Below, piece after piece: positions 638 through 59,617 of a stretch of DNA of 64,000 nucleotides; position 1 is the stretch's first letter; each line of letters starts with the position of its first letter. This DNA comes from an uncultured Acidobacteriota bacterium (GTDB lineage Bacteria; Acidobacteriota; Vicinamibacteria; Marinacidobacterales; DATDRI01), in the NCBI GenBank assembly GCA_963722765.1, contig CAVROO010000007.1, positions 159,606 through 223,605 on the forward strand. Direction: 5' to 3'. The notes beneath the pieces are model-generated. The model did no database searches. It saw only the letters and a list, made by a program, of their open reading frames with translations, and was not told where the DNA came from. The position numbers and the translations under genes were made by a program.

Positions 638-3196
638 CTATTCGTATCGCAGAGCGGTGATCGGATCGATTCGCGTTGCACGCCACGCCGGAACAGCGCT
701 TGCCAACAGGCCGACTGCCAATAAAAGGGTCGTGACAGCCGTGAATACGATGGGATCGGCGGCGCTGACCCCGTAGAGCAGGCTAGTGGCAACGCGGGCC
801 AAGGCGAAGCCGGCGGCGAGGCCGAGGGTCACGCCGATCAGGATTACTAGGGCTGCTTGTTTAACGACCATCGCGAGGGTGCCTGCTCGTGTCGCCCCGA
901 GAGCCATGCGGAGACCGATCTCTCTCGTGCGATGACTGACGGTGAAGGAAACGATTCCGTAGAGTCCCACAGCAACAAGGGCCAGCCCGACGATTCCGAA
1001 GAGCCCGACGATATGGGCCGCCATCTGCGTCGCCATGAAGGAGCTTTCGACATGTTCGTTCATCGTTCCAATGTCGAAAACGGGCAGGTTCTCATCTATG
1101 GCGCGAACCTCGGCGCGAAGCGTTGCCGCCGGACCGAGAGGATGGACCGTTGTGCGAGTCAACAAAGTCACAGCATTCGTCGCCGGTCTCTGGTAGAGGG
1201 GCAGAAACAAATATCCGACCGGATTTTCATCCAGACTTCGATACTTGCCATCCGCCGCGATGCCTATCACCTCGACCGCGGCTCTCTCTGGATTTCGTTC
1301 CGCCATGGGACCGCTGAGGTGAATGCGTTTATGGAGGGGATCCTCTCCCGGCCAGTAGAGCTCCGCAAATGTCTCGTTGACAATTGCAACGGGCCTCCCC
1401 GTCGAATCATCTTGCTCGGTGAAACTGCGACCTCGTACCACAGCGGTTCCCATCGTCTCGAAGTAGTTTGGACCCACGAGGCTATACAAGGAAACGATCT
1501 CGTCTTCTTCCTCGTTTCGAGTCTCGCGACCTTCGATACGGATACCAACAGATTCAGCGAAAAAGTCGAGAGGAAGAGGGGTGGCGAAAGAGGCCGCTTC
1601 CACCTCGGCGACGGACTCCGCGCGCGCTCGAAGGAGTCGGTAAAACTGCTCGGACCTCGTCTCGTCGTAGCCGTTCAAAGCGGGGTCGACCGACATCAAG
1701 AGCAAGTTGCCGGATTCGAATCCTGGATTGATCTCGGAGGCCTCTTGCAAACTGCGCAGAAACAATCCGGCACCGACCAAAACGACCACGGAGACGGCGA
1801 CTTGGGCGACGACCAGGCCGCCTCTCAGTCGAGAGCGAGTCACGCCCCTTGCCGACCCCGTTCCTTCACCCTTCAACGAGGGAACCAAATCGGGACGCGA
1901 AAGCCGCAGGGCCGGTATCAGACCGAAGACGACTCCGGTCGCGAAAGTGACGACGACGGCAAATCCCAAGAGACGCAGGTCGGCACCGAGATCGAAAAAG
2001 AACGGTATGTCGGTGGGAAGCTCTACGGCGGCCAACAGACGGCTGCCCCAAACGGCGAGCACCAACCCGCCCAGCCCGCCGAGCGTTGCCAGCACCACAC
2101 TCTCGGTGAGCATCTGACGAACCAAGCGCCATCGGCTCGCTCCCAGGGCCTGCCTCATGGCGATCTCCCGGTTCCGCGCCGTCGCTCGCGCCAGAAGCAG
2201 GTTGGCCACATTCGCACAGGCCACCAGAAGAACCATCCCGACAATGGCCATGATGACCGTCATGGCGAGAGTCAACATAGTGGCGGAGCCTGGGGCCGGC
2301 CGAGCTTCGCGTTCCCGGTACACTTGAATTCCGACACTCCGATTGGTGTCCGGGTACTCGAGCTCGAGTCCACGGGCCAGCGTTGTCATGGCTGCCTGCG
2401 TTTGTTCGACGCTCACACCATCGGCGAGCCGACCCACGACACGAAGCCAGCGCCGATTCCTGAGGTGAAGCATCTCCTGCCCGGAGCCCGGTGTGACCTG
2501 GTCGGCCATCATCATCGGCACCCAAGCCGCCGGTGAGAAGCCAACGACGAAAAGCCCGGTGAATCCCTTCGGCGCCACGCCGACCACCGTGAAGCTCACG
2601 CCGTTCAACTGGATCTCGCTACCGACGATCTCGGGATCGGAACCGAACCGGCTCTCCCAAAAAGCGTTGCTGAGCACCGTCACGGGGTTTCGTCCCGGAA
2701 CCTGGTCTTCTTCAGGGAGGAAGGAACGCCCGAGAGCGACCTCGACGCCCAGCACGTCGAAGTAATTGCCGGTGACGATCTCGCCATAAATGCGCTCGTT
2801 CCTGGCGCCGGCACTCAAGTTGAGAGCGCGCGGTTTATAGGCGAGCAAACCGGAAAGGACATCGTTGCCAATGCCGTCTCGATAGTCAACATAGTCCGCG
2901 TAGGAGAGATCGTAAGGATAGGGAGCTTCAGGTACTTCATTATATATACATACGAGATTGTCGGGCTCATCAACTGGTAGAGGCCGAAAAAGAAGCAAGT
3001 TGACGAGGTTGAAGATCACGGAGTTCGCGCCGATGCCGAGCGCCAGTGACAGTACCGCTACCGTCGTAAACCCGGGACTCTTCGCCAACATCCGGAACGC
3101 GAACCGTATATCCCTAATGAACGTCACCAGCGCCCTCCCTCGAGATAAGACCAGTCTCTTCAACCTTCTAACGATGTTACCGCCGCTCAGGTTCAA
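638..3196 (-). CDS. ABC transporter permease, FtsX/MacB-like ADOP family (duplicated FtsX domains), 852 aa
   Basis: Intact 852-aa ORF. N-terminal motif FAFRMLAKSPGFTTVAVLSLALGIGANSVIFNLVN is typical of Acidobacteria duplicated orphan permeases, with two FtsX-like TM bundles. Confidence 0.9.
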   Translation of the reverse strand: MNLSGGNIVRRLKRLVLSRGRALVTFIRDIRFAFRMLAKSPGFTTVAVLSLALGIGANSVIFNLVNLLLFRPLPVDEPDNLVCIYNEVPEAPYPYDLSYADYVDYRDGIGNDVLSGLLAYKPRALNLSAGARNERIYGEIVTGNYFDVLGVEVALGRSFLPEEDQVPGRNPVTVLSNAFWESRFGSDPEIVGSEIQLNGVSFTVVGVAPKGFTGLFVVGFSPAAWVPMMMADQVTPGSGQEMLHLRNRRWLRVVGRLADGVSVEQTQAAMTTLARGLELEYPDTNRSVGIQVYREREARPAPGSATMLTLAMTVIMAIVGMVLLVACANVANLLLARATARNREIAMRQALGASRWRLVRQMLTESVVLATLGGLGGLVLAVWGSRLLAAVELPTDIPFFFDLGADLRLLGFAVVVTFATGVVFGLIPALRLSRPDLVPSLKGEGTGSARGVTRSRLRGGLVVAQVAVSVVVLVGAGLFLRSLQEASEINPGFESGNLLLMSVDPALNGYDETRSEQFYRLLRARAESVAEVEAASFATPLPLDFFAESVGIRIEGRETRNEEEDEIVSLYSLVGPNYFETMGTAVVRGRSFTEQDDSTGRPVAIVNETFAELYWPGEDPLHKRIHLSGPMAERNPERAAVEVIGIAADGKYRSLDENPVGYLFLPLYQRPATNAVTLLTRTTVHPLGPAATLRAEVRAIDENLPVFDIGTMNEHVESSFMATQMAAHIVGLFGIVGLALVAVGLYGIVSFTVSHRTREIGLRMALGATRAGTLAMVVKQAALVILIGVTLGLAAGFALARVATSLLYGVSAADPIVFTAVTTLLLAVGLLASAVPAWRATRIDPITALRYE

Positions 3197-9351: not shown

Positions 9352-10395
9352 CTAATGGCCGAAGTGCACCTCAGCGATAGCGATCCCACTTTCGCCGGCC
9401 ACGGCGTAAAGCAGGAAGGTTCGTCCGTCTTCCTCGTGGACCGCCGGGTCACGTAGTTGGTTGACCTTGCCGAAAGCGGTGCTTCGCACGGACGGCTCGA
9501 GCGGCGCGTTCGCGCCCTCCCAGTCGCGTTCCGGTCGGAGCACTTCGACCGGTTCGGTCTCGGACCAAGTGGTCCACTCGCCCGAGATATCGATGATGCT
9601 CAAAAGGATTCGCTCCGGCGCGTGGCCGACCTGTGTCCAAAAGACATAGAGCGTGTTTCCTCGTTTCAAGAGGGCCGCGTGGCGCATGTCGGAGTTGAAG
9701 AGCAACGGCCCCTCCTCGAATCCAGTCAAACCATCGTTGGACCGGTAAAACTGGCCCGGCATCGACATGGCGTATCGGTATCCCTCATGCTGAAACACTC
9801 GCATGTAAGTCCGGCCGAGCACTTCCGGACGCGCCTCGAACCGGATCCCGTCCCGGGAGATAGCCACCCGTGTCACCTGTCGGTCGACACCATCGAGACC
9901 ATGGAGGTACATGAGGATCCGACGATTTGCTTCGTTCAACATAAACGTCTGGTGACGCGATGTGCGGTGTCGTGATCTCGCTCAACAGGCTGTGGGACAA
10001 AGTCACACCCCTCTTCTCACGCGCAGCGCGGGCCCGCTCGAGCTCTGCAGGCGACACTTCGGGGGCTCCGTCAGGAATTGGGAATCCTCGATCTGCAGAC
10101 TACCCGGCCGGTGGATCGTCCAGGGACCGAGTAGGGCGTCGGCGTAAGCGAGCCGGATATAACGGCCTTTGTGATCGGCGAAGTAAAGGTAATACTTGCC
10201 GAGCGGCGCCTCGATCCAGTCGGGAACCCGGATGAGCGACGGCCCCTGGATGTTCTCCCCAATGCTTGGATGAAGCGCAGGTGTGATGATCGGAGCATCC
10301 GCAAGGCGCTCGATACGCACGGAGGGTTCTTGCGCGTACCCACGAGCTCCTACGATGAGACAGATCGCAACCGCGACACTAACAATGAAATACAT
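9352..10395 (-). CDS. secreted glycoside-hydrolase-like five-bladed beta-propeller protein (GH43/GH32-like), one frameshift
   Basis: N-terminal signal peptide plus GPSLIRVPDW...YYLYFADHKG...LLGPWT in ORF 10003..10395. C-terminal blades LYVFWTQVG...RDPAVHEEDGRTFLLYAV in ORF 9352..9942. The two frames join near 9950-10000. Confidence 0.55.
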
Positions 10396-18385: not shown

Positions 18386-21169
18386 TTGAGCAGCATGGAT
18401 AGCGCCGTACCAGTCAACGACACGAGCGAATCCCAGAACGATACCGTCAAACTCGCACCCGAGGATTTGGAGAAACTCCAGCAGGCGGTAGCCAAAACTC
18501 TTGGTGACCGCTACGAGGTCTTGTCCCGCTTGTCCTCGGGCTCGCTGGCAGACGTATATCACGCCCGAGATTCGATGCTCGACCGCGAGGTGGCCATCAA
18601 GCGCGTTCGTCTCGACGGATTGACGAATCCGAACAACCGGAACGAGGCCAAAAAGCGCTTTCTCCGGGAAGCCAAGGTCGCAGCGAGGCTCAACCATCCC
18701 AATATCGTCACGATATATGACATCGTTGACTCCAAGACGGTGAGCTTCTTTGTCATGGAGTTCATCGACGGAACGAACCTCGAGAAGTTGCTCGAAGAAA
18801 AGAAGCGGCTGTCGTGGGATGAAACCCTTCACATTCTGACCCAAGCCGCCGATGCACTGGACCACGCACATCAAGGCACGGTCGTTCACCGAGACATCAA
18901 GCCGTCCAACATCATTATCGAGCGTTCCGGGCGGGTTAAAGTTGCGGACTTCGGGATCGCAAAATCCGAGACCTCCGGCAATATCACGACGACGGGAACG
19001 ATCTTGGGAACTCCCAACTACATGTCTCCGGAACAGGCCCGGGGGAACAGGAAGATCGACGGCCGCGCCGACCTCTTTTCGTTGGGATGCATCTTGTACG
19101 AGTGTCTTTCCGGAGACAAGCCGTTTCAAGCCGACAGCACCATCGGCATCTTGATGCGGATCGTCGGTGACGACATGCCCGAGCTCGATTGCGAGAAACT
19201 GGGGTTGGACCCCAAGGTGAGCGAGATACTACACCGAGCCCTTGCCAAGAATCCAGACGAGCGAATCGCAACGGGTGGAGAGCTTTTAGAGGCGCTTCAG
19301 ACGATTACGCATTCGGAACCGGATAGTCGCGAGACGAAGGAAGAGACGAGCGTGCCGGAAGAGCGGATCGAAGCGCCAGAAAAATCTGACGCAGGAGCGG
19401 AGGCAGAAGACAGCCAAGAGACAGAAGACGAACTGAAGGCTAAGGAACAGCAGAAGGCTGAGGAGCAGCAGAAGGCCGAGGAAACGCAGAAGGCCGAGGA
19501 AACGCAAGACGTAGAAGAAGCTGAGGCACCCGCGCCCAAGCCCATCACACGTCGCGACGAGGGCTCCGAGCCCGCATACGACAACACCTTGCAGGGTACG
19601 CTGGGCGAGAAAGACCTCGCGCATGTGATACGCGACGTCTATGTCAACCGCCGTACCGGAATCCTTCATCTAGTCCAAGAAAACGTCAACAAACGCATCT
19701 ACATCAAGAAAGGCTCGATCGTCTTTGCCAATTCCGACCTCAACGACGACCGTTTAGGCGAGTTTCTGATAAAACAAAACGTGATCGACCGCTCGGCCTT
19801 CGATGAAGCGGTCAAGGTCATGAAAGAAACGGGACATCGCCTAGGTGGGGCTCTCGTTGACCTTGGTCATCTGGACGAAGAAAAGCTCAACGAGCAGGTC
19901 ACCGAGCAAATCAAGAGCATCATCTTTTCAGTCTTCGAATGGGAAGCCGGGCAATTTGCCTTCGAGCGACTGGAGACTCCGGTCGAGGAAGACATTATCG
20001 TCGGCCTATCGACCGCCGACACAATCCTCGAGGGCATCCGACGGATGAAAAGCATGGACACCATACGCCAAGCTCTCGGACAGCTCGACCGGGTGCTGGC
20101 CCATCCCGAGAATCCGCTCCTCATGTACCAGAAATTCAGTCTCACGCCTGAGGAGGGTTTCGTGATGTCCCGAGTGGATGGCACGACGACCGTAGCGGAG
20201 GCGGCGGCACTTTCTCCCATGGGCGAAGAGGATACGCTTCGGTGCATCTACGGTCTCGTCTGCGCCGGTGTGCTCACGCTGGAAGAACGAGCACAGGAGC
20301 GTACCGATCGCCTGAAACGACTGACGAAAGCGGACGAGGCCAAGCTGCCCTCGCCCGAAGCCGAGATCAAGGAACAGCCGGCCAGAACCGCCCCCGTCAC
20401 CGACAAAGAAAAGAAGGATTCGAGTCCGACAGCGGAGCAGCAGGCGGTCAAGGACGAGATCGCTGCCAAGCATGCCTCTCTTACCACAGCAAACCACTAC
20501 GAACTACTAGAGGTGGAAACGACGGCGGACGAGGCTCAAATCAAAGAAGCCTACTATGCGATGGTGAAGAAGTATCACCCAGACCGGCATCACTCTCCTC
20601 ACTTCGAGGATTTGCACGGGCTTCTCGAAGATCTAATGGTCAAGGTCACCGCGGCCTACCAGTTGCTGTCCACACCGGTGGATCGTACGCAGTATGACAA
20701 GACACTTCGGTCCAATGAATCTCCTTCTGGGAAATCGCCCTTCGTTGATGATCCGGACGTCACAACCGCGACTCCCGAGGAAGTAGCGGAAAAACATTAT
20801 CGGGAGGGAAACCGTCTCTTCAACGAGATGGCCTATTTCGATGCGATCCAATGTCTCCAAGAGGCAGTGAGGCTAAATCCGAACAAGGCTTCCTTTCACA
20901 AACTACTTGCAAAAAGCTTGAGCAAGAACCCGAACTGGAGAAAGGACGCGGAAAGTCACTTCTTGAAGACCCTCGAGCTCGATCCCTCCGACGCGGAATC
21001 CTACGTGGGCTTGGCGATTATCTACGATGAGCTGGGGCTCTCCACCCGATCCCAAAAAACCTGGCGAAAGATACTCGAGCTCGAGCCCGATAACGATGTC
21101 GCCTACGCGAAGGTTCACGGCAAGAAGAAAAACGGCGGCCTGATGGGCCTTTTGAGAAAAAGGGCTTAA
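18386..21169 (+). CDS. multidomain Ser/Thr protein kinase: kinase + acidic linker + DUF4388 + DnaJ J-domain + TPR repeats
   Basis: Intact 927-aa ORF. Kinase subdomains VAIKRV, HRDIKPSNIII, DFGIAK, GTPNYMSPEQ. EEQQKAEE linker. DUF4388-like block (ILHLVQEN...IYIKKGSIVFA...LGEFLIKQNVI...LGGALVDLG...FEWEAGQFAFE). J-domain with HPD (NHYELLEV...KKYHPDRH). Then TPR repeats. Confidence 0.9.
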   Translation: MSSMDSAVPVNDTSESQNDTVKLAPEDLEKLQQAVAKTLGDRYEVLSRLSSGSLADVYHARDSMLDREVAIKRVRLDGLTNPNNRNEAKKRFLREAKVAARLNHPNIVTIYDIVDSKTVSFFVMEFIDGTNLEKLLEEKKRLSWDETLHILTQAADALDHAHQGTVVHRDIKPSNIIIERSGRVKVADFGIAKSETSGNITTTGTILGTPNYMSPEQARGNRKIDGRADLFSLGCILYECLSGDKPFQADSTIGILMRIVGDDMPELDCEKLGLDPKVSEILHRALAKNPDERIATGGELLEALQTITHSEPDSRETKEETSVPEERIEAPEKSDAGAEAEDSQETEDELKAKEQQKAEEQQKAEETQKAEETQDVEEAEAPAPKPITRRDEGSEPAYDNTLQGTLGEKDLAHVIRDVYVNRRTGILHLVQENVNKRIYIKKGSIVFANSDLNDDRLGEFLIKQNVIDRSAFDEAVKVMKETGHRLGGALVDLGHLDEEKLNEQVTEQIKSIIFSVFEWEAGQFAFERLETPVEEDIIVGLSTADTILEGIRRMKSMDTIRQALGQLDRVLAHPENPLLMYQKFSLTPEEGFVMSRVDGTTTVAEAAALSPMGEEDTLRCIYGLVCAGVLTLEERAQERTDRLKRLTKADEAKLPSPEAEIKEQPARTAPVTDKEKKDSSPTAEQQAVKDEIAAKHASLTTANHYELLEVETTADEAQIKEAYYAMVKKYHPDRHHSPHFEDLHGLLEDLMVKVTAAYQLLSTPVDRTQYDKTLRSNESPSGKSPFVDDPDVTTATPEEVAEKHYREGNRLFNEMAYFDAIQCLQEAVRLNPNKASFHKLLAKSLSKNPNWRKDAESHFLKTLELDPSDAESYVGLAIIYDELGLSTRSQKTWRKILELEPDNDVAYAKVHGKKKNGGLMGLLRKRA

Positions 21170-21170
21170 A

Positions 21171-21188
21171 GGGACAGGTCCCTTTTTT
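21171..21188 (+). terminator. intrinsic terminator of the kinase gene: GGGACAGGTCCC hairpin followed by T6
   Basis: A perfect 5-bp stem with 2-nt loop sits 2 nt after the kinase TAA stop, followed by TTTTTT. Confidence 0.7.
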
Positions 21189-21922: not shown

Positions 21923-23655
21923 ATGAAGCTTTTCGACTGGGCGGCACACCGCGGCGGCATGTCTCGAGTACTTTTCTCCAGTGCTTTGCTGGCACTCGGT
22001 CTCGTGCTCGTGGTCTGGGCCGGCAACCGCGCGACGAGGCGCGAGCTTCTGACGTTGCTCCGCGACCAAGCGGCGTCGTTGAGACAGACTCTAGCGGCGG
22101 CGGCACGCTCGAACTACGAAGCGAGCAAGCAAGCGGCCGGCGAGCTCGAGGTGCGCATGCTCGAGAGCGCTCACATGCTGGCCGAGCTCGACCGGCTCGA
22201 TTTACTGAATGAAAATCTACTCAACGAGATGGTTAGCCGAAACCGGTTGTTCCGTGTCACCATTTACGGGCCCAATCGCGAGGAAGAGTACGCCAGTGGA
22301 GGCGCCCGGGGTCCAAGAAGGGGCTTCGGTCCGGGATTCGCTACCGGGTACGGGGGGAGTCTTCTCGATCGATTGTACTCCGACGAAGAGGCCACACGAA
22401 GTTACGGATATACACGTGTCCCGCTGGGGCGATTGGAGGGGGTTCGCCGCCGTCCGGCGCGAATCGGGCGGTGCCATCGTATTGAACGTCGATGCCTCTC
22501 AAGATAAAAAGACTCGAGCGGCAATCTTCCCTCAATTACCTACTCGAAGACATCACCGAGAACGCGAGCGAGGTGGTTTATGTGGTTTTCGAACAGGACG
22601 CCCTCCACATCGCTCACGGCGATATCCCGAGCGACCTGGACATCGAATCCGCCCAGGACGGCACGACCTCAGACGGGAGGTGACCTTCACTCCGAGGAAC
22701 GCGAGACGGAAGTGGGCGGTCACTCCGTCCTCGAGTTCGCCGGCCCCATTGTCTTGGACGAGGAAACGACGGCGTTTCTGCGCCTCGGAATCAAGGCTCG
22801 ACGGACTGCGCCGGGCTGAGCAACGTATGCTGTGGCAACTCAGTCTGTCGCTGGCGGCGAGTCTAGCCTTGGCGTTTCTCGGTGTCGGTACGGTTTGGCT
22901 TCAGCGCAAGTACAGCTTGCTGAGTGAACGACACGATCGCACTCGGGAAGCCCTTCGGCGGAAGGATCGTCTGGCCGCCATGGGAGAGCTTTCCTCGACC
23001 GTGGCCCACGAAATAAGGAATCCACTGAATGCCATCTCCATGAGCGCCACGCGGTCTGCGTCGTGAGTTTTTGGACACCGTACCCGTTTCAGGCGACGAC
23101 CGAGAGGAGGCGGAAGAGCTCCTGGGTGTTCTCGAGGTCGAGTCGCGACGGATGAACGACCGGATTCAGCAGTTTCTGGACTTCGCCCGTCCTCCCCGCC
23201 TGGCGCCGCGTCCGACCGACCTTGGGGAGCTCACACGATCGGTAGAGGAAAGCGCAAGGGCTACAGGCGCTGCGAAAGGGGTGGAGGTCACTTCCGATCG
23301 TCCGGCGCCGGAATGGCCACAGTGGATCCCGAGCAGCTTCGGCAAGTCCTCGAGAACCTCGTCCGAAATGCCGTCGAGGCCACACCCGAAGGCGGCCGTG
23401 TATCCATCGTTGCCCGCCGCCGAGGGAAGTTCCACGAAATCGAGGTGACCGACACCGGGAAAGGGATCGAGGTTGAGCGACCTACCTCGTCTCTTCGATC
23501 TCTATTTCACTACGAAGACGGAGGGTACGGGCGTCGGATTGGCGGTGGCCCAGCAGGTAGTGACCGCTCACGGCGGAACGATCGAGGTGGACTCAACCCC
23601 GGGACGAGGTACTACAATGACCATCAAGCTACCACGTGCGGAAAGCAAATCATGA
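21923..23655 (+). CDS. sensor histidine kinase (membrane, HisKA + HATPase_c), multiple frameshifts
   Basis: N-terminal TM segment. HisKA H-box [23 protein letters not shown] in ORF 22209..23066. N-box and G-box pieces [16 protein letters not shown]...[10 protein letters not shown] and [31 protein letters not shown] in two further frames. Stop overlaps the RR start (ATGA). Confidence 0.8.
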
Positions 23656-25016
23656 GTGAACGGGTGGTTCTCGTCGTCGATGACGAAGCTTCGCAGCGCA
23701 AGGTCCTCTCCGGGTTCCTTCGCAAGCGCGGCTTCGTGACCCTGTCCGCGGAAAGTGTTGATGAAGCCCTCGAGCTCGCCGGTACCAACGTGATCGATCT
23801 CGTGATGACCGATCTCCGCATGCCCGGTCGAGACGGCATCGAGCTGCTTCGAGAGCTTCGGGCGATGAATCCCGAAGTTCCCGTGATTCTGATGACCGCC
23901 TTCGGTACCGTCGAAACCGCCGTTAACGCCATGAAGGAGGGGGCCTCGGACTACCTGACCAAGCCGATCGATCTCGACGAGCTCCTCATACTGGTGAACC
24001 GCAACCTGGAACACCGGGCACTCGAGTCCGAGAACCGGGAGCTTCGACGGCAACTCGAATCCCGTTATCGCCTGAAGGGCCTCCAAACATCGAATCCCAA
24101 AATGGCCCAAGCCATCAACGTTGCGGCTCGAGCGGCTTCGAGCCGCGCAACCATTTTGATCCGCGGCGAGAGCGGAACCGGTAAGGAGCTTCTTGCCCGC
24201 GCCATTCACTACGCGAGTCCTCGCGCCAAACGCCCATTGATCGCGGTCAACGTTGCGGCGCTTCCGGACACTCTTCTCGAGTCGGAGCTTTTCGGACACG
24301 AGCGGGGCGCGTTCACCGGTGCCGACCGGCAACACCGAGGCCGCTTCGAGCTTGCCGATACGGGGACACTTTTCCTGGACGAGATTGGGGATCTTCCTCA
24401 CGGCACACAGGCGAAACTGCTCCGGGCCCTACAAGAAAAATCCTTCGAGAGACTCGGCGGGACACGTTCGTTAAAAGTCGATGTTCGCGTACTCGCCGCC
24501 ACCCATCGTGACCTCGAGGAGATGGTTCGAAAAGGAGAGTTTCGAGAGGATCTCTATTACCGCTTGAACGTGGTCTCCATCGAGATTCCGCCTCTACGAG
24601 AACGCCGGGAGGATATTCCTCACCTCGTCGATCACTTCATTCGACAGTTCGCCGAAGAGAGCGATTCCCACGTAACGGGAATGTCCCGTGAGGCCATGGA
24701 CGGCCTACTCAAACACGATTACCCGGGCAACGTCCGCGAACTGGAGAACATGGTGCACCGTGCTATGGTGCTCGCTCGAGACTCCCTCCTCGCCGTTTCC
24801 GACTTTCCTCTCCATCTTTTAAATATTCAAAATGAAAACATTGCGCCGGACTCGCTCGTCGATCGCATGGCCAATTACGAGAAGGCGCTCCTGACCGAAG
24901 CGCTCGAAAAGGCCGGCGGAGTGAAGACCCGGGCAGCCCGTGCACTGGGTATCAGCGAAAGACATCTCCGTTACCGCCTGAGCAAATACGGCATCGAGCC
25001 CGGCGACAACGACTAG
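23652..25016 (+). CDS. sigma-54-dependent NtrC-family response regulator (REC + AAA+ sigma-54 activator + Fis-type HTH)
   Basis: REC domain (VVDDEAS...[14 protein letters not shown]). Walker [15 protein letters not shown] sigma-54 contact motif. ESELFGHE. C-terminal [18 protein letters not shown]. Intact. Confidence 0.92.
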
Positions 25017-34478: not shown

Positions 34479-35669
34479 CTATTCCGCTCGCAAAGCCTCC
34501 ACGGGATCGAGCTTGGCTGCACGTCGTGCCGGCAAGTATCCGCTCGCAAGACCCACCAAGAGGCTCATTCCGAGAGCGGCGGCGACGGCCGCCGGCGGCG
34601 TGGCGAGGGGCAAGCCCGGGACGAACAGACGGATCAAAGATCCCAATCCAAAGCCCGTCGCCACGCCGGCCAACCCTCCGATGCAGGCAATGAAGACCGC
34701 CTCGAGGAGAAAAAGCATCGACACCGTTGTCGGGGTGAGGCCGAGTGCCCGTAAGAGACCGATTTCGTTCGTGCGTTCGTGCACCGAGATCCACATGACG
34801 GTGAGGATCCCGACGCCGCCCACAAGCAGCGAGATGCCCGCGATGCCGCTCACGGCGACGGTGACCATGTTGATGATGCGGCCAAAGGTATCGAGCATCT
34901 CCTGCTCGGTGGTGATGGTGAAGTCTTCCTGTCCGCGATGCCGTTCGGTGAGCAACCGGCGCATCGCCTCGACGGCGGAAGGAACGGCTTCAGCGCTCCG
35001 GGTCAGCACATCGATTTCGAAGAGCTCGTCAACATTGAAGAGAGCCATGGCGCTGGCCACGGGAATGTAGGCGGAATCATCGAGGTCGAATCCCAGAAGG
35101 ATCCCTTTGGGCGCCATGACACCGACAACCAGGAAGCTCCGGCCGCCAATGCGAACCCGCTCGCCCAAGGGCGAGTCCGCATCAAAGAGCTCACGTTGCC
35201 AACTTGGGACCGAGCACGACATGGGCTCCCTGGCGCCTTGGATCGATGGCGCGGCAGAAACGATCCCTGACCCACCGGGAAAGTTCCAGGTCATGGGCAT
35301 CTCGTGGGTTACCCGAATACGAAGACATGGCGACCCCTTACCCCTCCCTCGACTCGAGCTTGGCCCATGACAAGAGGGAGGAGAGTGCTCGACTCCCGGG
35401 ATTTTCCGTAGTGCCTCGGCATCATCGATGTCGAGCTTGTGAGTGGTGCCTCCGAGCACACCGGGTATTCCTACGGTCTGCGTCTTTCCCGGATTGATGG
35501 CGATGATGTGGGTTCCGAACTGGGTGAACTGCGAGACGATGTAATCGCGGGTGCCCTCCCCGAGAGAGGTCAGTAGGATCACGGTGGCGACGCCAATGGC
35601 GACACCCAATGCCGATAATCCCGAGCGTAAGCGGTGACCCGTCAATGCCGCTAGGACGAACTCGAGCAT
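34479..35669 (-). CDS. ABC transporter permease, FtsX/MacB(LolE)-like, paralog 1
   Basis: N-terminal TM, periplasmic domain, and C-terminal FtsX bundle (ERTNEIGLLRALGLTPTTV, DPVEALRAE). The middle region appears disturbed by compensating indels. Confidence 0.8.
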   Translation of the reverse strand: MLEFVLAALTGHRLRSGLSALGVAIGVATVILLTSLGEGTRDYIVSQFTQFGTHIIAINPGKTQTVGIPGVLGGTTHKLDIDDAEALRKIPGVEHSPPSCHGPSSSRGRGKGSPCLRIRVTHEMPMTWNFPGGSGIVSAAPSIQGAREPMSCSVPSWQRELFDADSPLGERVRIGGRSFLVVGVMAPKGILLGFDLDDSAYIPVASAMALFNVDELFEIDVLTRSAEAVPSAVEAMRRLLTERHRGQEDFTITTEQEMLDTFGRIINMVTVAVSGIAGISLLVGGVGILTVMWISVHERTNEIGLLRALGLTPTTVSMLFLLEAVFIACIGGLAGVATGFGLGSLIRLFVPGLPLATPPAAVAAALGMSLLVGLASGYLPARRAAKLDPVEALRAE

Positions 35670-35676
35670 CGTGACC

Positions 35677-36876
35677 TCACCTTCCCGTCAAAGCTCGGAC
35701 CGGATCCAAGCGGGTGGCCCGTCGCGCCGGCCACACGCCGAAGCCGACGCCTACCAGGAGAGACAAAACCATGGCGGAAACAACCGCCCAAAGAGGGGGT
35801 GCCGCCGGAAAGCTCGGGTAATAGCCGACGAAAGCCGTGACCGCCAGGTAACCGGCGCTCGAGCCCACCAGACCTCCCAAGATGGCCAGAAGAACAGCCT
35901 CCAACATGAAAACGACGAGAATCTGTCGGTTGGCGGCACCCAGCGCTTTGAGGAGACCGATCTCCGCCCGGCGCTCGGTGACGGAAACGAGCATGACGTT
36001 CATGATTCCCACGCCCGCAACAGTGAGCGAGATGGAGGCAATCCCCGCCAGTGCCAGGGTCATGACCTGCATGATGGAAGAGAAAGAAGTCACGACCGCA
36101 TCTTGAGAGATGACCGTGACGTCCTCGGCTCGGTGTCGCTCGGTGAAAAAATCGATGACCCCTCGACGTGTTGCCTCCGTCGTGTCGCTCGATCGAATCT
36201 CGATAAGGATCCGGAAGAGCGAGCTTCGGTTGAACATGGACATGCCGGTCTGAACGGGAACGAGCACGAGGTCGTCCACATCGAAACCGAGCGATCGTCC
36301 GTGCGGGGCGAGCACGCCGACGACTCGGAATCGCCACTCACCGATCCGCACGACCTGGCCCAGGGGGTTATCGGCTCCAAAAAGCTCTTTTGCGATCTTG
36401 ACTCCCAGCACGACCTCCATGCCGCCTTGGTCCAGATCGCCCTCTGAAAGGAAACGGCCGGAGCCCATATCGAGCTGTCGAACGTGCGAGAAATTCCGAC
36501 GTCGTTCCAACGACAGCGCCGGACCGGCCTTTTCCGCGAAAACGCACCGTCTCCGTCCCCATGGAGATGGGAGCCGCACGGCGAACACCGGGCAACGCGG
36601 CTACGGAGGAGCCGGAAGTCTTCCAGAGTCAGGTCGTGGGTGACCCCTCCGAAGGGCATGGCGCCGGTGGTCTCTACTTTGCCCGGGCAGAACGATCAAG
36701 ATGTTGGTGCCAAGGGCGGAGAACTCGCGGGTGACGTAGTTCCTAGCGCCTTCGCCCAATGCGGTCAGAGCGATGACGGCCGAGATCCCGACCGCCACGC
36801 CGGCAACGGAAAGTACCGTCCGGAGACGATGCCCGGCGAGAGCACCGGCAGCGAAGCGGAGCAGATCCAGAGACAT
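35677..36876 (-). CDS. ABC transporter permease, FtsX/MacB-like, paralog 2, with frameshifts
   Basis: Start MSLDLLRFAAGALAGHRLRTVLSVAG in ORF 36601..36999. FtsX C-terminus ERRAEIGLLKALGAANRQI...DPVRALTGR in ORF 35677..36588. Confidence 0.8.
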
Positions 36877-36886
36877 CTCGTTCCCG

Positions 36887-37583
36887 TCAATCTCGATGGA
36901 CGGCCAAGGGCTTGCGTTTCGTTTCAAACATCTCCCCGTCTTCCATTCGAATGACCCGACCGGCTCTTTCGGCGACGGCCATGTCATGGGTAACCACAAT
37001 CAAAGTGAGTCCGTTCGCGTTCATGGATTCGAGAAGCATCATGACCTCTTTGGCCGAAGAGCGGTCGAGGTTGCCGGTAGGCTCGTCGGCGAGCAAGCAT
37101 CTTGGGCCCCATCACCATCGCACGGGCTATCGCCACGCGCTGTCGTTCTCCTCCGGAAAGCTGATCCGGGCGATGATCGAGACGATGGCCGAGGCCGACC
37201 GCTTTCAGTGCCCTTGTCGCAATCTCTCTTCGCTCTTCGCGGTCGATGCCGGCGAACAGCATGGGAACCTCGACGTTCTTGAGCGCAGTCAAACGGGCCA
37301 GCAAGTGAAAGAACTGAAAGACGAAGCCGATGTCGTAGCCACGAATCCGAGAAAGCTCCTCTTCGCCGAGCGCGCTGATCTCGCGCCCGCCGAAACGGAA
37401 AGAGCCCGATGTCGGTCGGTCCAAACAACCCAAGATGTGGAGCAACGTCGATTTTCCCGAGCCAGAGGGACCGACAATGGCGACATGGTCTCCCTCGGCG
37501 ATTTGGAGACTCACACCCTTGAGAGCATGAACGATTTCGCTGCCCATCGGGTAGCTGCGCCGGAGATCGGAAACCTCGATCAT
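36887..37583 (-). CDS. ABC transporter ATP-binding protein (MacB/LolD-type), one frameshift
   Basis: Walker A GPSGSGKST, Q-loop and signature LSGGERQRVAIARAM in ORF 36984..37583. Walker B and H-loop LLADEPTGNLD...VVTHD in ORF 36887..37096. Confidence 0.88.
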
Positions 37584-38854
37584 GATTCCTCCTCGACGAC
37601 GACCGTAACGCCGGCTTTGATGTCTGGAGTGTCCCTCGAGATCACCACCGATTCACCTTCGCGGAGACCTTCCTTGATCTCCGTGGTGCGCCAGTTGCGG
37701 AGACCGGTGACAACAACGCGCTCGTCGAGTCGTCCCTCGACGACCACGAGAACCTTGTCTCCTGGTCCTAAAGCACCGGTCGGAATCTGAAGCACATTTT
37801 CGCGTCGGGAGAGAATCACCTCGATGTCGGCGGAGGTTCCCGGCAAGAAGCTCTCGGCGATAGAGGGATCGTCTAGCTCCGCCTCGATCTCGACGGTTCG
37901 GTTCTGCTCCACAACGTCCAACACGTAAGAAGCGACCCGCACTAAACGTCCCGGAAAGTGCTCGCCTCGCCGGGAGTCCACGCTAATTCGAACCGTCTGC
38001 CCTACGGAGACCCGCTCCGCATCCATTTCGTCGATGGGCGCTTCTATATAGATGGAGGTCCGGTCGATGAGATCCATGATGGGAGGGATAGGTACACCTG
38101 GAGGGGATGGCGTGATCCACTCTCCAAGCTCGGTGCTCATATCGGCAATAACGCCGTCGAAAGGGGCGCGGAGCTCGGTTCTTGCCAGCTCCGCTTGGGC
38201 CAAGCGCTCCTGGGCACGAGCTTGATCCAAAACGGCCCGGGCGGCACTACAGCCGGCCCGACTGCGATCGCGCTCGCTCCTCCGGGCGTCCACGATTTGA
38301 TTGCTGGCGATTCCGCTCTCGCCCAAAGTAATGGCTCGTTCGAGCTCAGTTTGAGCCAACTCCGTCCCGAGACAGGCCTCCTCCGATCGGGCGGTCGCGA
38401 CTCGAATGTCCTCCCGGGTCAGCTCAAGCCGTGCCTGATGAAGGGAGTCGTCCAGCCGGAGCAGAAGATCACCTTTCTTGACGAGCGAGCCCGCCCGGTG
38501 CGGCAGCGCCACGACCCGTCCGCCGTTCTCCGGAGATAGACGGGCGCGAAGCCGCGCTTTGACCGTGCCCGCTCGGGTGTTGGAGATCGTCTGCTCTACC
38601 GCACCTCTTTCCACCCTGGCCACCTCGACGGATAGAGGCTTGGGGACGAGGACGGTGAGGCGCAAGGCCGCGCCGGCAACCACCAAAGCGAGGATGACGA
38701 GAACATGCGAAAGCGCTTTTTCTTCTTCAAGCTCGAATTCGAGTGTTGCAGGTCGCGCAAGTCCGTGAGGGAAGCCTCGGGGCTCACTTGTACTCTCGCT
38801 AAGGTTCTCCTCGACGGCCGGCTGTGTCAGCAACCCGGAGCCCGTTTGTGACAT
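37580..38854 (-). CDS. efflux transporter periplasmic adaptor subunit (HlyD/MacA-like membrane fusion protein)
   Basis: N-terminal TM anchor, long coiled-coil, then beta-barrel and MP domains. The 3' end overlaps the ATPase start (ATGA). Confidence 0.85.
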   Translation of the reverse strand: MSQTGSGLLTQPAVEENLSESTSEPRGFPHGLARPATLEFELEEEKALSHVLVILALVVAGAALRLTVLVPKPLSVEVARVERGAVEQTISNTRAGTVKARLRARLSPENGGRVVALPHRAGSLVKKGDLLLRLDDSLHQARLELTREDIRVATARSEEACLGTELAQTELERAITLGESGIASNQIVDARRSERDRSRAGCSAARAVLDQARAQERLAQAELARTELRAPFDGVIADMSTELGEWITPSPPGVPIPPIMDLIDRTSIYIEAPIDEMDAERVSVGQTVRISVDSRRGEHFPGRLVRVASYVLDVVEQNRTVEIEAELDDPSIAESFLPGTSADIEVILSRRENVLQIPTGALGPGDKVLVVVEGRLDERVVVTGLRNWRTTEIKEGLREGESVVISRDTPDIKAGVTVVVEEES

Positions 38855-45055: not shown

Positions 45056-46615
45056 GTGGTCCAAGAAACGGTATCGAGAGCGTCCATTGGTGTGAAAATC
45101 GGTCTCACCGTTGCGTTACTGGTGCTTATCCATTATTTCCCTCAGTACTTCGGCGTACCCTACATGGACTCCCACCAGCAGATTCACATCATGACACCGG
45201 GCGACCTCGACGTCCGGTTTCCATTCGGTCTGTTCAAACTATGGTTGGTGGTCTCGATTTGGCTCAATGTCGTCCTGTGGACGGAAAGACGATGGGATCA
45301 GAGAACTCGATGGGTCGAGCTTGGGCTTGGGACTCGGTGGGGCCTACATTCTCTGGCGGATCTTCCAGCGTGCCTCGGCGGCTTTCCGACACGACGGAAT
45401 ACCCCTTCCGGGGATCCACAATCCCAGTCTCCAAGTCTTTCTCGGTCATGCGTGTCTGGTCGCCCTCGCTATTGCCATCGTTTTGACGCTCATCACTTCC
45501 GGTAAACGCTTTTATCGCCTACGCGGCGCTCTTTCCGTCGAGAGTCTCTGGCGGAGACGCAGGGCGACGGCAACAGAAATGGATCAGCGACAGGGAGGTT
45601 TCGAACGAACGCTGCGCCGCGACCTCCGGGACGTTTACCACTTCTATCTCGACGACAAAGCTCGGGAAGAGCTCGCCACGATGGGTGCCGTGGGAAAAGC
45701 CTTCCATCTGGTCTTCTGGGTCATGAAGAGCATGATTCAGAAACTCACTCCCGCCCGGCGCATTCTGCTCGTGGCCGGTTTGATTACCCCCACCATCGGC
45801 GTCGAGATCGGTGATACCGGTTTACGCTTTGGAGGGATCGGATTCGTGCTCATTCTTCTCGTCCTGTTGCTCGAGCTCAAGGACAAGCTCACGGCGCTCG
45901 ACGAGCTCGCCGTGGGCCGGGCCGTTCAAAACGCTCTGCTGCCGAGCGCGAATCCCGTCGTCGCGGGATGGGAGGTCTGGCTCCACACACAACCTGCCAA
46001 TGAAGTCGGTGGCGACCTCGTGGACTATCTCGAGGTTCGAGAAAAAGGCTGGGGCGTGGCTCTCGGGGACGTGGCCGGCAAGGGATTGGGTGCAGCGCTG
46101 TTGATGGCCAAGGTCCAGGCCACCTTGCGTGCTCTGGCCCCAAGCTATACCTCTCTTGCCGATCTCGCACGAGAGCTCAATCACATCATTTATCGCGATG
46201 GACTCCGTAATCGCTTCGTTTCTTCGTCTATCTCGAGCTCGAGTCAGGCTCTGGTGGAGTTCGCTTCGTCAACGCCGGACACTTACCGCCCATCCTCGTG
46301 CGCGGCGATGTGCTCCAGTCCATGCCCAGGGGCGCGCCGGCCTTGGGTATCCTGCCCGAAGCGACCTACAACGAAGAAGAAATTGAGCTCGACCCGGGAG
46401 ACCTCTTTGCCATCTTCTCGGACGGTGTCACGGAAGCCATGAACGAGAAAGGGCAATTCTTCGGCGAAGCTCGGTTAATGAGCCTCCTCGAGAAACATCA
46501 AGGTTTTTCCGCCAAGGCACTAGGCGAGCAAATCTTGTCGGAGGTCAAAGCGTTCATCGGCGAGGAACCTCCGAGCGACAATCTATCACTCGCACTGCTC
46601 AAGCGAGTGACTTGA
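45056..46615 (+). CDS. membrane-anchored PP2C-family Ser/Thr phosphatase (SpoIIE/RsbU-like), with frameshifts
   Basis: N-terminal TM helices. PP2C core GWEVWLHTQPANEVGGDLVDYLEV...ALGDVAGKGLGAALLMA and a C-terminus with DGVTEAMNEKGQFFGEARL. Pieces lie in three frames (45056.., 45267.., 46298..). Confidence 0.8.
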
Positions 46616-50251: not shown

Positions 50252-50300
50252 GCATGTATAATTTGTGAATCTGACGTCATTTTGTGAAATTTGACGTCAA
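50252..50300. promoter_or_regulatory. near-palindromic operator GTGAATCTGACGTCAttttGTGAAATTTGACGTCAAATTCAC in the divergent tetR promoter region
   Basis: Two TGACGTCA cores. The second half site is an almost perfect 23-bp palindrome, 35 nt upstream of the tetR start. One A/T homopolymer asymmetry. Confidence 0.5.
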
Positions 50301-50334
50301 ATTCACATCTCGGCAAAGTCCCTGTCACAATTCG

Positions 50335-51000
50335 ATGGAAGAAGGAGACATGGAAGGAAAGGAAAAACTCTCCCGGCGCGAAAGAGAAAAGCTCTGGCAG
50401 AGACGCCAGATGCTCGAAGCCGCCATCGAGCTTTTTTCCGAAAAGGGCTACCACAATATCTCGATGCACCAGATTGCCGAGCGATCGGAATTTGCCATCG
50501 GGACCCTCTATAAGTTCTTCAAAAATAAAGAATACTTGTACCGCGCTCTGGTCACGGAAAAGTCATCAGAGATTTTCGGTTCTCTCGCCGAGCCTCTTTC
50601 CAAGGAGGGAGATACCTTGACGATCCTCGGGAACTATCTCGAGAACCGCGCCAAAATCGTTACCGAGGTCGCCCCTCTCATCCGCATGCACATGGCCGTG
50701 GCGCAGGGAATGAGCTTCAACATCAACGCCGAGGTCGAAAAGGAGCACCGCCGGTTCCATGAAAAACATATAGCGCAACTCGCGGCGGTAATGAACGAAG
50801 GCATTCGTAGAAAAGTATTGCGTTGCTTGGAGCCCGAATCCATGGCCGTGGCGCTCGACGGATTGGCGAGGGCGTTTTTTCAACAGGCTGTGAAGAATCC
50901 GAAACAGTTCGACAAGGAAGCAATCGCTCCCTTCGTGCTCGATCTCTTTCTGAAAGGAGGGCAGGCGTCCCGAAAAGGCCGGCTCTCTAACGCGTCCTGA
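50335..51000 (+). CDS. TetR/AcrR-family transcriptional regulator
   Basis: HTH LEAAIELFSEKGYHNISMHQIAERSEFAIGTLYKFFKNKEYLY. Upstream of and co-directional with the TolC-MFP-RND genes. Confidence 0.85.
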   Translation: MEEGDMEGKEKLSRREREKLWQRRQMLEAAIELFSEKGYHNISMHQIAERSEFAIGTLYKFFKNKEYLYRALVTEKSSEIFGSLAEPLSKEGDTLTILGNYLENRAKIVTEVAPLIRMHMAVAQGMSFNINAEVEKEHRRFHEKHIAQLAAVMNEGIRRKVLRCLEPESMAVALDGLARAFFQQAVKNPKQFDKEAIAPFVLDLFLKGGQASRKGRLSNAS

Positions 51001-51010
51001 GGCAGATATC

Positions 51011-52432
51011 GTGAAGAACAAAATGACCCTTGTAACTCTGCTGGCATCCATGGTTCTTTGTTTCCCTTTGGGAGCAAGCGAAGGACCGCAGGAAATTACC
51101 CAAGACATACCCAAGGAAATGCTCAACCTCACCACCGCCGTGGAGTACGCTCTTGCAGCCAATCCGAAGGTCAAGCGGGCGAGGGAAAAGGTCGCCGAGT
51201 TCGAGCAGTTGAAACGTCAGGCCAGAAGCGAAGCCCTTCCCAAGGTTGACGCGTTCCTCTCTTTGAATCAGACCCGCGATCCGGGTCTTCGGAACAGCCC
51301 GTTCTTTTCAAAGATCATCGAAGGGGGAGAAATTCCACCGGAAGCGCTCTTGCCCTTCAAATTCACGAACTACATTTGGCAGTTCGACATCGAACAACCC
51401 ATCTACACCTTTGGACGCGTGAGCAGTGCTTTGCGGGGGGCACGGGACGAATTGAACGGCGTCTATTTGGATGTCCGAGAGGCGGAAAACGAGCTGTCAC
51501 GTGATGTCGCGCGCGCTTGTTACGGCTACCTACTAGCTAAGGCACAGCTCCGAGTGCTCGAGTCGGAAAAGGCCGCGCGAGAGCGCCAGCTCGAGCACGT
51601 CCAGGTTCGATTCGAGCTCGAGGACGCAACCCGTCTCGACCTACTTCAAGCTCAGGTCACTCTGGCAAATCTGCGACCGGAGATCCTGGCCGCCGAGAAC
51701 AATCTCCAGATCGCAGTTGCGGTGGTCAACGACGCACTGGGAAGACCCGTCGATACGCCTTTCGACATCACAGTGCCGCTGGTGCTTCCGGAGAGAATCC
51801 CGGAGGTGGCAGGACCGCGGGAGCTCTTGCTTGCGGCCGATGACAACCGTCCCGAGCTCTTGAGGTTTCAAATCGACCGCAAAGTTCTGGACGCACAGGT
51901 CGGAATTACTCAGTCCAACGTGTTGCCTCAAATCAGTGCAAACGCCTCGTTCGGTGTCACCACATTCGCTCCCGAGAACCTGGCCAAGATAGGCTTTCGA
52001 ACCTGGGCGGCCGGTATCGTCATGCGGTGGACCCTCTTTGACGGACTGAAGACCAACGCGGAAGTCAAGGCGATCCGTTCGCGGATCTCTCAGAATCAGC
52101 TACAAGAAGACAGTTTCAGGTCAGAGCTTGCCATGGAGCTCGAGCGAAGTACGGGAACCTGGGTACGGGCGCTCGAGGCCATCGAAGTGGCGCAGTTCGC
52201 CGTCGAGCAGGCCACCGAAGCGCAACGGGTTGCCGAGGAGACGTACCAGTATGGAGCGGCAACGACCCTCGATTTGCTCGAAGCTCAACGAGCGCTTCGT
52301 GAATCGGAGTTCAATCTGGCATCGGCGGCGCACGCGGCACTGGTGGCGCTGTCCGAGCTCAAATATCTCGTAGGATTTCGGGCCGACGTTCCGGTGTCGG
52401 GATTGGAAGGAGCGGGCTCGAGTGTACAGTAA
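51011..52432 (+). CDS. TolC-family outer-membrane efflux protein
   Basis: Signal peptide. Two OEP repeats with coiled-coil motifs (LTLANLRPEILAAENNLQIA..., LDLLEAQRALRESEFNLASAAH). Confidence 0.9.
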   Translation: MKNKMTLVTLLASMVLCFPLGASEGPQEITQDIPKEMLNLTTAVEYALAANPKVKRAREKVAEFEQLKRQARSEALPKVDAFLSLNQTRDPGLRNSPFFSKIIEGGEIPPEALLPFKFTNYIWQFDIEQPIYTFGRVSSALRGARDELNGVYLDVREAENELSRDVARACYGYLLAKAQLRVLESEKAARERQLEHVQVRFELEDATRLDLLQAQVTLANLRPEILAAENNLQIAVAVVNDALGRPVDTPFDITVPLVLPERIPEVAGPRELLLAADDNRPELLRFQIDRKVLDAQVGITQSNVLPQISANASFGVTTFAPENLAKIGFRTWAAGIVMRWTLFDGLKTNAEVKAIRSRISQNQLQEDSFRSELAMELERSTGTWVRALEAIEVAQFAVEQATEAQRVAEETYQYGAATTLDLLEAQRALRESEFNLASAAHAALVALSELKYLVGFRADVPVSGLEGAGSSVQ

Positions 52433-53531
52433 ACTGCAAGTGGGAGCTTCCATGAGTACAAGATGGAATCAACGATTATCCGGTGCCGGTTTAGTATGGA
52501 TCATCCTTTTTGTTGGGGTCTGGGCCGTTGGCTGCAGTCAACAGGCTCCTGAGGAGGAACCGGCCGGAAACGGCTCGTTCGAGCCACCACCGATCAATGT
52601 CTCCGTGGTGGAGCTCGAACCCTCTGAGCTGACCGAGACCGTCGTCTTGACCGGTCGGGTCGAGCCCTGGCTCGAGCTCGAGGTATCCGCCGAGCTCGGC
52701 GGCACGGTCCTGGAGATCAACTTCGACAAGGGGCAGCGCGTGAAGAAGGGCCAGGTCTTGGCGCGTGTAGGTACGGACATTCTTACCATTTCCCTCAACG
52801 AGGCGGAGGCGGCCCTCGTGGAAGCCGAAGCCAACTACAATAAGACCAAGGAGCTTTTCGCGCGCCAGGCGGTTCCACGCCAGGAGCTCATTGCCTTCAC
52901 GTCCCGTTATGAGGCGGCCAAAGCCCGCGTCGCCCTCGCCAATCTACGCGTCGAACGTTCCATCATCGACGCGCCGGCGTCTGGTATAGCCATCACCCGT
53001 GAAGTCGAACTCGGCGAAGTCGTTCCGCCCGGCGCATTGATCACCACGATCCACCAAACCAACCGACTCAAGATTAATGTCGGCATTCCAGAGAACGAAA
53101 TCTCCTATTTCCGTCGCGGGAGCGATGCCACCATGCAGGCGGACGCCTATCCGGACCATGCATTCGCGGGAAAGATCCACTTTCTCGGGTCCGCCGCCAG
53201 CGGAAAAAACAGAACCTTCCCCGCGGAGGTGGCCGTGGACAATGCGGATGAAAATCTTCGGCCGGGAATGATCGTCAGGGTCTCTTTGGTGAAGCATCAC
53301 TACGAAAGCGCGTTGGTCGTACCCCGCGACGCGTTGCTGGAACGTGATCAAGGCAGTGTCGCCTTCGTCGACGTCAACGGCCGAGCTCAGGAACGACCCA
53401 TCGTTCTAGGACCGAGCGAGGGCAACCGGGTCATCATCCAGGAAGGCCTGACCGAGGGTGAGTCCCTCATCGTCAGCGGACACCGCAACCTCGTCGACGG
53501 ACAGTCCGTCCGGGTCGTCAAGCAGGACTAG
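52422..53531 (+). CDS. efflux RND transporter periplasmic adaptor subunit (AcrA-like)
   Basis: Lipoprotein-like N-terminus (VGCSQQ). Biotinyl/lipoyl-like, beta-barrel and MP domains with GQVLARV...RVERSIIDAPASGI pattern. Confidence 0.9.
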   Translation: MYSKLQVGASMSTRWNQRLSGAGLVWIILFVGVWAVGCSQQAPEEEPAGNGSFEPPPINVSVVELEPSELTETVVLTGRVEPWLELEVSAELGGTVLEINFDKGQRVKKGQVLARVGTDILTISLNEAEAALVEAEANYNKTKELFARQAVPRQELIAFTSRYEAAKARVALANLRVERSIIDAPASGIAITREVELGEVVPPGALITTIHQTNRLKINVGIPENEISYFRRGSDATMQADAYPDHAFAGKIHFLGSAASGKNRTFPAEVAVDNADENLRPGMIVRVSLVKHHYESALVVPRDALLERDQGSVAFVDVNGRAQERPIVLGPSEGNRVIIQEGLTEGESLIVSGHRNLVDGQSVRVVKQD

Positions 53532-53535
53532 AACC

Positions 53536-59035: not shown

Positions 59036-59196
59036 AACCAACGGCGAGCTTTATAAGCGTGCCGCTCGCGATCCCATGGTTCAGGGATTCGTCGAGACCT
59101 TCAAGGGAGAAATTGAGACGGTTCGCCTGCGTGAGCCAAATCCCGGACCAGAGGCAGACCGAACCGCCAAGCGTTGATTCGCCAAGAGGTAAAGCT

Positions 59197-59502: not shown

Positions 59503-59617
59503 TTCGTGAAAACGCAGACGGCAATTAAATCTACCCCTAGAGGCGATTTCCGGCTACAATCAAAGGTTCAATATATTCGGCGCCCGAGCGCCATAAAAAA
59601 TTGAGATTCGAGCAAAG

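Follow-up and report, generated by a model that had tools for sequence, protein, structure and literature searches.

A bacterial Ser/Thr kinase that carries a J-domain on the same chain raises the question of which signal such a protein receives and to what end it would engage the chaperone DnaK. The question is posed by one gene (18395..21169, plus strand) in a 64,000-nucleotide stretch of contig CAVROO010000007.1 from an uncultured Acidobacteriota bacterium; this whole stretch was analysed and is called the window below. Translation of 18386..21169 (+) gives a single open frame of 927 codons from a TTG; the likely start is the in-frame ATG at 18395, with the TTG at 18386 as an alternative, and the product is 924 amino acids (aa) plus stop, colinear with full-length homologues. 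It combines a Hanks-type kinase, an acidic linker, a PATAN (DUF4388) domain, a winged-helix-like domain, a J-domain and TPR repeats, and is best explained as a signalling protein of the cytoplasm. It belongs to an Acidobacteriota family that is uncharacterised and represents a new combination of known domains. We put at roughly 45% the probability that it is a class-III J-protein that responds to a second messenger and has a kinase attached, the messenger most likely being cyclic di-GMP (c-di-GMP). A first-pass annotation of this DNA had already described one gene with a complete kinase, an acidic repeat linker, DUF4388, a J-domain with intact HPD and C-terminal TPRs, and Pfam (where the matches for all listed domains exceed the gathering scores), the open reading frame and homologue colinearity bear out both its domain list and its one-gene reading.

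What that annotation overlooked is the most informative feature of the protein: the insert in the DUF4388 domain is, by sequence and model, an MshEN-type motif and a probable c-di-GMP-binding site. The PATAN domain (aa 400-552; 19592..20050, +) matches PF14332 over profile positions 1-119 of 122 with 77.4 bits (E 1.2e-21), three times the gathering score of 25, and its assignment is secure against the hidden Markov model threshold. An α-clip insertion is present, the 153 residues spanning 119 profile positions: in the structural model the β-rich core is split by four helices (module residues 64-124) lying between strands, and a separate AlphaFold2 (AF2) model of aa 395-645 reached a predicted local distance difference test score (pLDDT) of 92.2. 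The insert holds an MshEN_N-type motif of 53 residues (aa 453-505; 19751..19909, +), a putative c-di-GMP site with the sequence RLGEFLIKQNVIDRSAFDEAVKVM-KETGH-RLGGALVDLGHLDEEKLNEQVTEQ, in which motif I (R453-M476) and motif II (R482-Q505) are 29 residues apart with the spacer KETGH (477-481) between them; MshEN is defined by two 24-residue motifs and a 5-residue spacer (PMC5013675). NCBIfam model NF053729 ('c-di-GMP motif, MshE-related') matches aa 453-505 over profile positions 1-53 of 53 (40.7-41.5 bits; cutoff 38), as it does in all 18 family members scanned. When aa 395-645 were compared with PDB sequences by phmmer, the matches were confined to the MshEN-type segment and included Thermus thermophilus PilF (6F8L, 2.5e-8), Vibrio cholerae MshE (5HTL residues 8-64, 8.2e-6), Myxococcus xanthus PilB, and the PilF 'c-di-GMP binding domain' entries. 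Foldseek, run with the model of aa 395-645, recovered the four-helix-bundle fold of MshEN_N, with c-di-GMP-bound MshE (5HTL) as best match (53 columns, root-mean-square deviation (rmsd) 0.7 Å, 34% identity, probability 1.00, E 0.02) followed by the c-di-GMP-bound PilF GSPII-B structure 8PFA (rmsd 1.5 Å, 43% identity).

Across 116 homologues the R-x-G triplets of both motifs are invariant, as are V21 and Q24 of motif II; in MshE, R-x-G and motif II positions 21 and 24 are ligand-contacting (PMC5013675). The six key residues of a motif (R, L, G, L17, L21, Q24) appear in motif II as R, L, G, L, V and Q, which agrees with the relaxed motif of Wang et al. 2016 save for H at position 11. The query is like the structurally known MshEN receptors (MshE, 5HTL; T. 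thermophilus PilF GSPII-B, 8PFA/8PDK) in its tandem 24-residue motifs, 5-residue spacer, four-helix bundle and doubled R-L-G, and in motif II residues L/V/Q that are identical or conservative, whereas it differs in having the MshEN_N subdomain only, inserted in PATAN and not placed N-terminal to a T2SSE ATPase. The balance of sequence and modelling data tips somewhat towards the insert binding c-di-GMP or a close relative. With an MshEN-type motif in its DUF4388 domain, a second messenger, not MglA, is therefore the most likely input. The first-pass annotation had instead tied the DUF4388 kinase to MglA and myxobacterial regulators through the mglBA genes of this genome. An mglB-like Roadblock gene (60354-60854, +) followed by mglA from 60886 does lie in the window, some 40 kb from the kinase-J gene, but inspection of 18 related loci within ±8-10 kb found no mglA or mglB homologue in 11 family loci and no Roadblock Pfam match in the 7 others. 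The mglA of this window is, moreover, itself frameshifted, and the link is not supported.

The J-domain (aa 700-768; 20492..20698, +) matches PF00226 with 53.9 bits against 27.8 (E 1.9e-14), and its HPD (aa 728-730, nt 20576-20584) is invariant in 121 of 121 aligned family members, from which we reasonably infer DnaK recruitment. DnaJ_bact is matched at positions 2-76 of 354 only; the G/F region, zinc finger and DnaJ C-terminal domain are absent, with no DnaJ_C or DnaJ_CXXCXGXG Pfam match. Since the DnaJ model is matched no further than position 76, we assign the protein to the class-III (type C) J-proteins. Three TPR repeats and a capping helix follow (aa 798-906; 20786..21112, +), matched above cutoff by TPR_17, TPR_11 and TPR_2 and by Foldseek to 3-TPR domains at TM(target) 0.8-0.9; judged by eye, residues of an EEVD-type carboxylate clamp are not evident in these repeats. 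Between PATAN and J-domain lies a helix/strand domain (aa ~554-630; 20054..20284, +) with no Pfam match, which is winged-helix-like in the model (pLDDT >90) and bears a near-invariant ENPLL(L/M)YQK motif. The model of the whole PATAN-J-TPR module, built from a 121-sequence alignment, has a pLDDT of 88.5 and a predicted TM-score (pTM) of 0.83; compared with the PDB by Foldseek, it gave generic TPR matches only, and no significant solved homologue of the PATAN core was found. With the MshEN insert set aside, the PATAN core and the domain that follows it showed weak Foldseek matches (probability 0.05-0.5) to GATOR1/SEA-complex subunits and actin-fold proteins. GATOR1/SEA-complex subunits contain longin/roadblock-type domains. 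A separate observation concerns a family-invariant His-rich stretch at the HPD (aa 728-742, window 20576-20620; HPDRHHSPH(L/F)xD(V/L)HG), with five His in 15 residues; it is unusual among J-domains and might bind metal or sense pH.

Sequence comparison identifies this PATAN-J-TPR module as the conserved core of the family. A module profile run against 1.84 billion 50%-identity representatives collected 2,676 proteins at E<=1e-30, the majority of the best 150 covering most of the module, and further kinase-bearing fusions were found among these representatives. Searching with aa 391-924, which excludes the kinase, retrieved more than 232 relatives. All of the best 120 (90%-identity clusters) carry DUF4388 and DnaJ, and a quarter of them (30/120) are proteins of 830-920 aa with an N-terminal Pkinase domain, so that the kinase-J architecture is no one-off but recurs in Acidobacteriota. 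These 30 homologues, from assemblies made independently (JGI, ENA, NCBI and Logan), share the order kinase-PATAN-J-TPR. In a neighbour-joining tree of the module they and the query make up essentially one clade and the stand-alone proteins of ~545 aa, about two thirds of the matches, the other; the fusion is ancient. N-terminal partners vary: in ten long representatives a single Pkinase domain was seen in seven, two kinase domains in one, REC with a second PATAN in two, and PATAN twice in one, REC-bearing members being P0190 and P0200. By the homologue labels every named member belongs to Acidobacteriota (Vicinamibacteria, Blastocatellia and 'Ca. Marinacidobacterales'), and one 29%-identical locus was binned as Clostridia; on these labels the window too is most probably acidobacterial and not myxobacterial. 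A profile scan of contigs returned mostly generic J-domain matches and recovered about ten true family loci. The closest relative, L001 (contig_18352 of ERZ25039600), has an intact PATAN-J-TPR module at ~70-73% identity and a decayed kinase (9460-10020), of which remnants of aa 116-271 persist in two frames at 38-54% identity, with a ~340-bp deletion; with the kinase decayed and the module intact, L001 is a natural kinase-loss variant, and the kinase is an accessory that can be lost.

In the mechanism we favour, the C-terminal module would act as a specialised DnaK co-chaperone. Its J-domain would stimulate the DnaK ATPase via the HPD, the choice of partner or client would fall to the TPR and winged-helix-like surfaces, and the module would be switched when a ligand, most likely c-di-GMP, fills the MshEN pocket. 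The apparently catalytically competent Hanks kinase, tethered by a flexible linker in the fused subfamily and replaced by REC in other members, would add a phosphorylation input or output, such that the ligand switch governs, or answers to, Ser/Thr phosphorylation, whether the target is the partner, DnaK or the protein itself. Taken further, the module might be the first second-messenger-gated J-protein, with c-di-GMP or a related dinucleotide fitting the altered half-site deciding DnaK recruitment to a specific client, coupled to Ser/Thr phosphorylation in the fused subfamily; this stronger version we hold as a tentative and rather doubtful proposal. Should it be true, c-di-GMP, Hsp70 and Hanks-kinase signalling would converge directly on one Acidobacteriota protein.

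Among described architectures the nearest is the Pkinase-MshEN-UNK-REC arrangement of Myxococcales, for example Stigmatella aurantiaca PKN11 (Wang et al. 2016, Supplementary Table 4); that table contains no combination with a J-domain. PKN11 likewise has a Hanks kinase and then an MshEN-type motif on one polypeptide, but it ends in REC, has neither J-domain nor TPR and belongs to another phylum; the comparison covers the shared domains. The PatA-type PATAN-REC regulators (PatA, PixG, PixE, LsiR) resemble the query in their PATAN/DUF4388 domain with α-clip insertion and differ from it in that the query has a kinase, a J-domain and TPRs and no Response_reg (REC) Pfam match, so that it does not qualify as a PatA-type response regulator; some of its relatives carry REC. 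A J-domain serves as a targeting module beside TPRs in DNAJC3/p58IPK and DNAJC7, and in GAK/auxilin-2 it shares a polypeptide with a Ser/Thr kinase; these proteins are unrelated to the query in domain order and in origin, and the comparison is by analogy only. The M. xanthus PilZ-DnaK chaperones CsdK1 and CsdK2 provide a case of c-di-GMP receptor domains wired to Hsp70 (PMC10313047), with the difference that their receptor domain is PilZ and sits on Hsp70 itself, whereas that of the query is MshEN-type and would sit on the J-protein. The Hsp70-like StkA/SglK act in M. xanthus motility, type IV pilus (T4P) and exopolysaccharide (EPS) signalling (PMC4319316, PMC8265645). Full-text literature searches found nothing on PATAN/DUF4388 with DnaJ, nor on MshEN in Acidobacteria.

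To our knowledge, Acidobacteriota abound in soil and their signalling has hardly been studied; across bacteria, known c-di-GMP receptors are few, and little is understood of how Hsp70 is directed to particular bacterial clients. With an MshEN-type pocket on a J-protein and sometimes a kinase or receiver in addition, this conserved family of hundreds of 50%-identity clusters yields a testable hypothesis of second-messenger-controlled chaperone targeting. The α-clip of at least this PATAN lineage retains the MshEN ligand-contact residues, which bears on the possible working of cyanobacterial and myxobacterial PATAN regulators as well.

Several observations weigh against a messenger-responsive J-protein, beginning with the pocket itself. 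At the six key positions motif I has R, L, G, F, V and M, its turn Gly is replaced by N, and its positions 10 and 24 lie outside the relaxed motif of Wang et al. 2016; relative to MshE, Q32 is replaced by M, L25 by F, L29 by V (by S in the family) and G18 by N. In its second half motif I diverges throughout the family: residue 17 is F, residue 21 is S (the query has V) and residue 24 is M, in place of L, L and Q, so that one guanine half-site would be canonical and the other non-canonical, and some MshEN homologues, e.g. XpsE, do not bind c-di-GMP. The Gly-rich loop of the kinase departs from GxGxxG: the query has SSGSLA (L46-SSGSLADVY) where the family consensus is LGxGxFGxVY, keeping the middle Gly alone with two of the three glycines gone. 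As to genomic context, no GGDEF, EAL or PilZ gene occurs within the window, no dnaK was found near the query gene, and the loci of fused members have no conserved operon partners. Their neighbourhoods differ, with three PilZ genes nearby at L083/84, a GGDEF and PilZ pair at L086, PilZ and Flp/Tad genes at L082, ClpB, DnaK fragments and GroES/EL at L085, two FHA proteins at L087, and nothing relevant near L088 or the query gene in its window; the recurring PilZ/GGDEF, chaperone, FHA and Flp/Tad neighbours speak for the messenger-responsive reading, but as hints only. A large divergent neighbour in L082 and L087, considered as a candidate c-di-GMP enzyme, is a GAF-PAS histidine kinase. A literature search found no experimental work on any family member.

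The loci of the stand-alone members (L002-L005, L007, L009) are syntenic: a T2SSE ATPase, a ComEA-like HHH protein, a second PATAN protein (590-660 aa, ~4 kb upstream), a TPR-peptidase (TPR plus Peptidase_MA), an M23 peptidase, a NAD-epimerase, the module gene and, on the opposite strand, a sigma54 activator. This may be a pilus/secretion- or envelope-related cluster, and it supports the main alternative, possible though doubtful, in which PATAN and its α-clip are a protein-docking device and not a nucleotide sensor. As in cyanobacterial PatA-type regulators, the domain would latch onto the PilC platform or, through its N-terminal domain, a PilB/GspE-type ATPase; DnaK would be drawn by the J-domain to a pilus, secretion or polar machine, whose components would be substrates of the kinase. 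PATAN-REC regulators do bind PilB1/PilC, and the α-clip resembles the PilB N1 domain (preprint 10.1101/2021.06.11.447907); Flp/Tad genes adjoin one fused homologue, the non-canonical motif I also speaks for docking, and in M. xanthus the Hsp70-like StkA stands between T4P and EPS signalling (PMC4319316). However, conservation within the insert peaks exactly at the MshE ligand contacts (R-x-G twice, and Q505) and not in a surface patch, no pilus or secretion ATPase lies near the gene within the window, and even in the stand-alone loci the T2SSE gene is ~9 kb from the module gene. Docking and sensing are not mutually exclusive and can coexist in one protein.

The kinase could also be the main effector, with the C-terminal module only localising or autoregulating it; DnaK, recruited by the J-domain, would then serve the folding or activation of this kinase and would not work on separate clients. 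The domain (aa 40-292; 18512..19270, +) matches PF00069 with 178.7 bits against a gathering score of 31.7 (E 1.9e-52; profile positions 1-253 of 263), and from its residues it is apparently catalytically competent: K69, E92, H165-R166-D167, N172, D185-F-G, the APE-like motif SPE (S211-P-E, 211-213), the subdomain IX Asp (D226) and the subdomain XI Arg (R290) are intact. Kinase and module co-diverge, query and homologue being 56% identical in the kinase and 51% in the module; the ratio is the same in other fused pairs and argues that the two have travelled together. A conserved TRR(E/D)PG motif joins kinase to module, and FHA-domain genes, typical partners of Ser/Thr kinases, adjoin one homologue. 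We nevertheless regard a kinase-centred protein as unlikely, since most members have no kinase yet retain every feature of the module, HPD and R-x-G included, the nearest relative has lost the kinase and kept the module, and REC can substitute for it. A SpoIIE/PP2C-type phosphatase-domain protein is encoded at window 45267-46442 (+), 24 kb from the kinase gene; it is a possible, though unlinked, partner phosphatase.

It is less likely again that the query kinase is a pseudokinase or scaffold heading for loss. The departure of its loop from GxGxFG would fit such a fate, as would the remnant state of the closest relative's kinase with its deletion and frame changes, but every catalytic residue named above is present and the 56% identity of the kinase to homologues is not depressed relative to the module. 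That the fusion is an assembly or frameshift artefact joining two genes can be practically discounted: broken genes elsewhere in the window (mglA at ~61.28 kb, a sensor kinase between 23.06 and 23.33 kb) make the worry legitimate, but kinase and module diverge in step, the protein is colinear, across the 19300-19700 and 20450-20500 intervals that the first-pass annotation had flagged for a missed stop or frameshift, with at least 30 independent full-length homologues of identical domain order, and its acidic linker is conserved in frame from aa 337 in the nearest relative (L001/P0002). The architecture is near certain to be genuine.

That linker (aa ~305-394; 19307..19576, +) contains 31 D/E in 90 aa and is probably disordered; an 18-bp tandem repeat (×3.7, 19435-19501) within it encodes (K)AEEQQ/AEETQ repeats. 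Homologue linkers are ~35-aa Pro/Ala segments ending in VTRR(E/D)PG, and in the query lineage the linker has expanded to ~90 acidic residues, a version common to the query and L001, while still ending in the conserved TRR(D/E)xG motif (aa 385-390). A second, disordered linker, of low model confidence and variable length in the alignment (aa ~631-679; 20285..20431, +; pLDDT 46-68), precedes the J-domain. After the TPRs comes a basic, amphipathic tail of low pLDDT (21113..21166, +), ending in GLMGLLRKRA (aa 915-924, window 21137-21166; family form LKxxFGRKK), which could be a membrane- or partner-targeting helix. A terminator-like hairpin and T-run (21168..21185, +; a consensus match only) lies directly 3' of the stop, and the flanking genes, a YdjM-like gene upstream and a convergent cytochrome c gene downstream, are unrelated; with such neighbours and the hairpin, the gene looks monocistronic.

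The mglBA genes reported at 60.3-61.5 kb are there (60354-61480), immediately downstream of dnaX-ybaB-recR, with the qualification that mglA is frameshifted: its N-terminal two thirds are in the frame of the open reading frame from 60886, up to '…KTQGYDL' (~61278), and its C-terminal part continues in the +1 frame. One frameshift, located at a C-run near 61283-61290, accounts for this, the annotated 269-aa frame ending in Arg-rich junk, and mglA is either a pseudogene or the site of an assembly indel. In the interval 22209-25016 (+) a sensor histidine kinase is interrupted by two or more frame changes between ~23060 and ~23330, its H-box being followed by a stop and its N and G1 boxes lying in the frame of 23313-25016; the NtrC/AtoC-like sigma54 activator annotated there thus carries an N-terminal HATPase_c fragment. 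Further intervals of the window (638-3196, 34479-38854, 50284-56979 and 57415-60217) hold housekeeping and efflux genes, the latter comprising several MacB/FtsX-type ABC permeases with an HlyD adaptor and a TetR-OEP-HlyD-AcrB RND operon.

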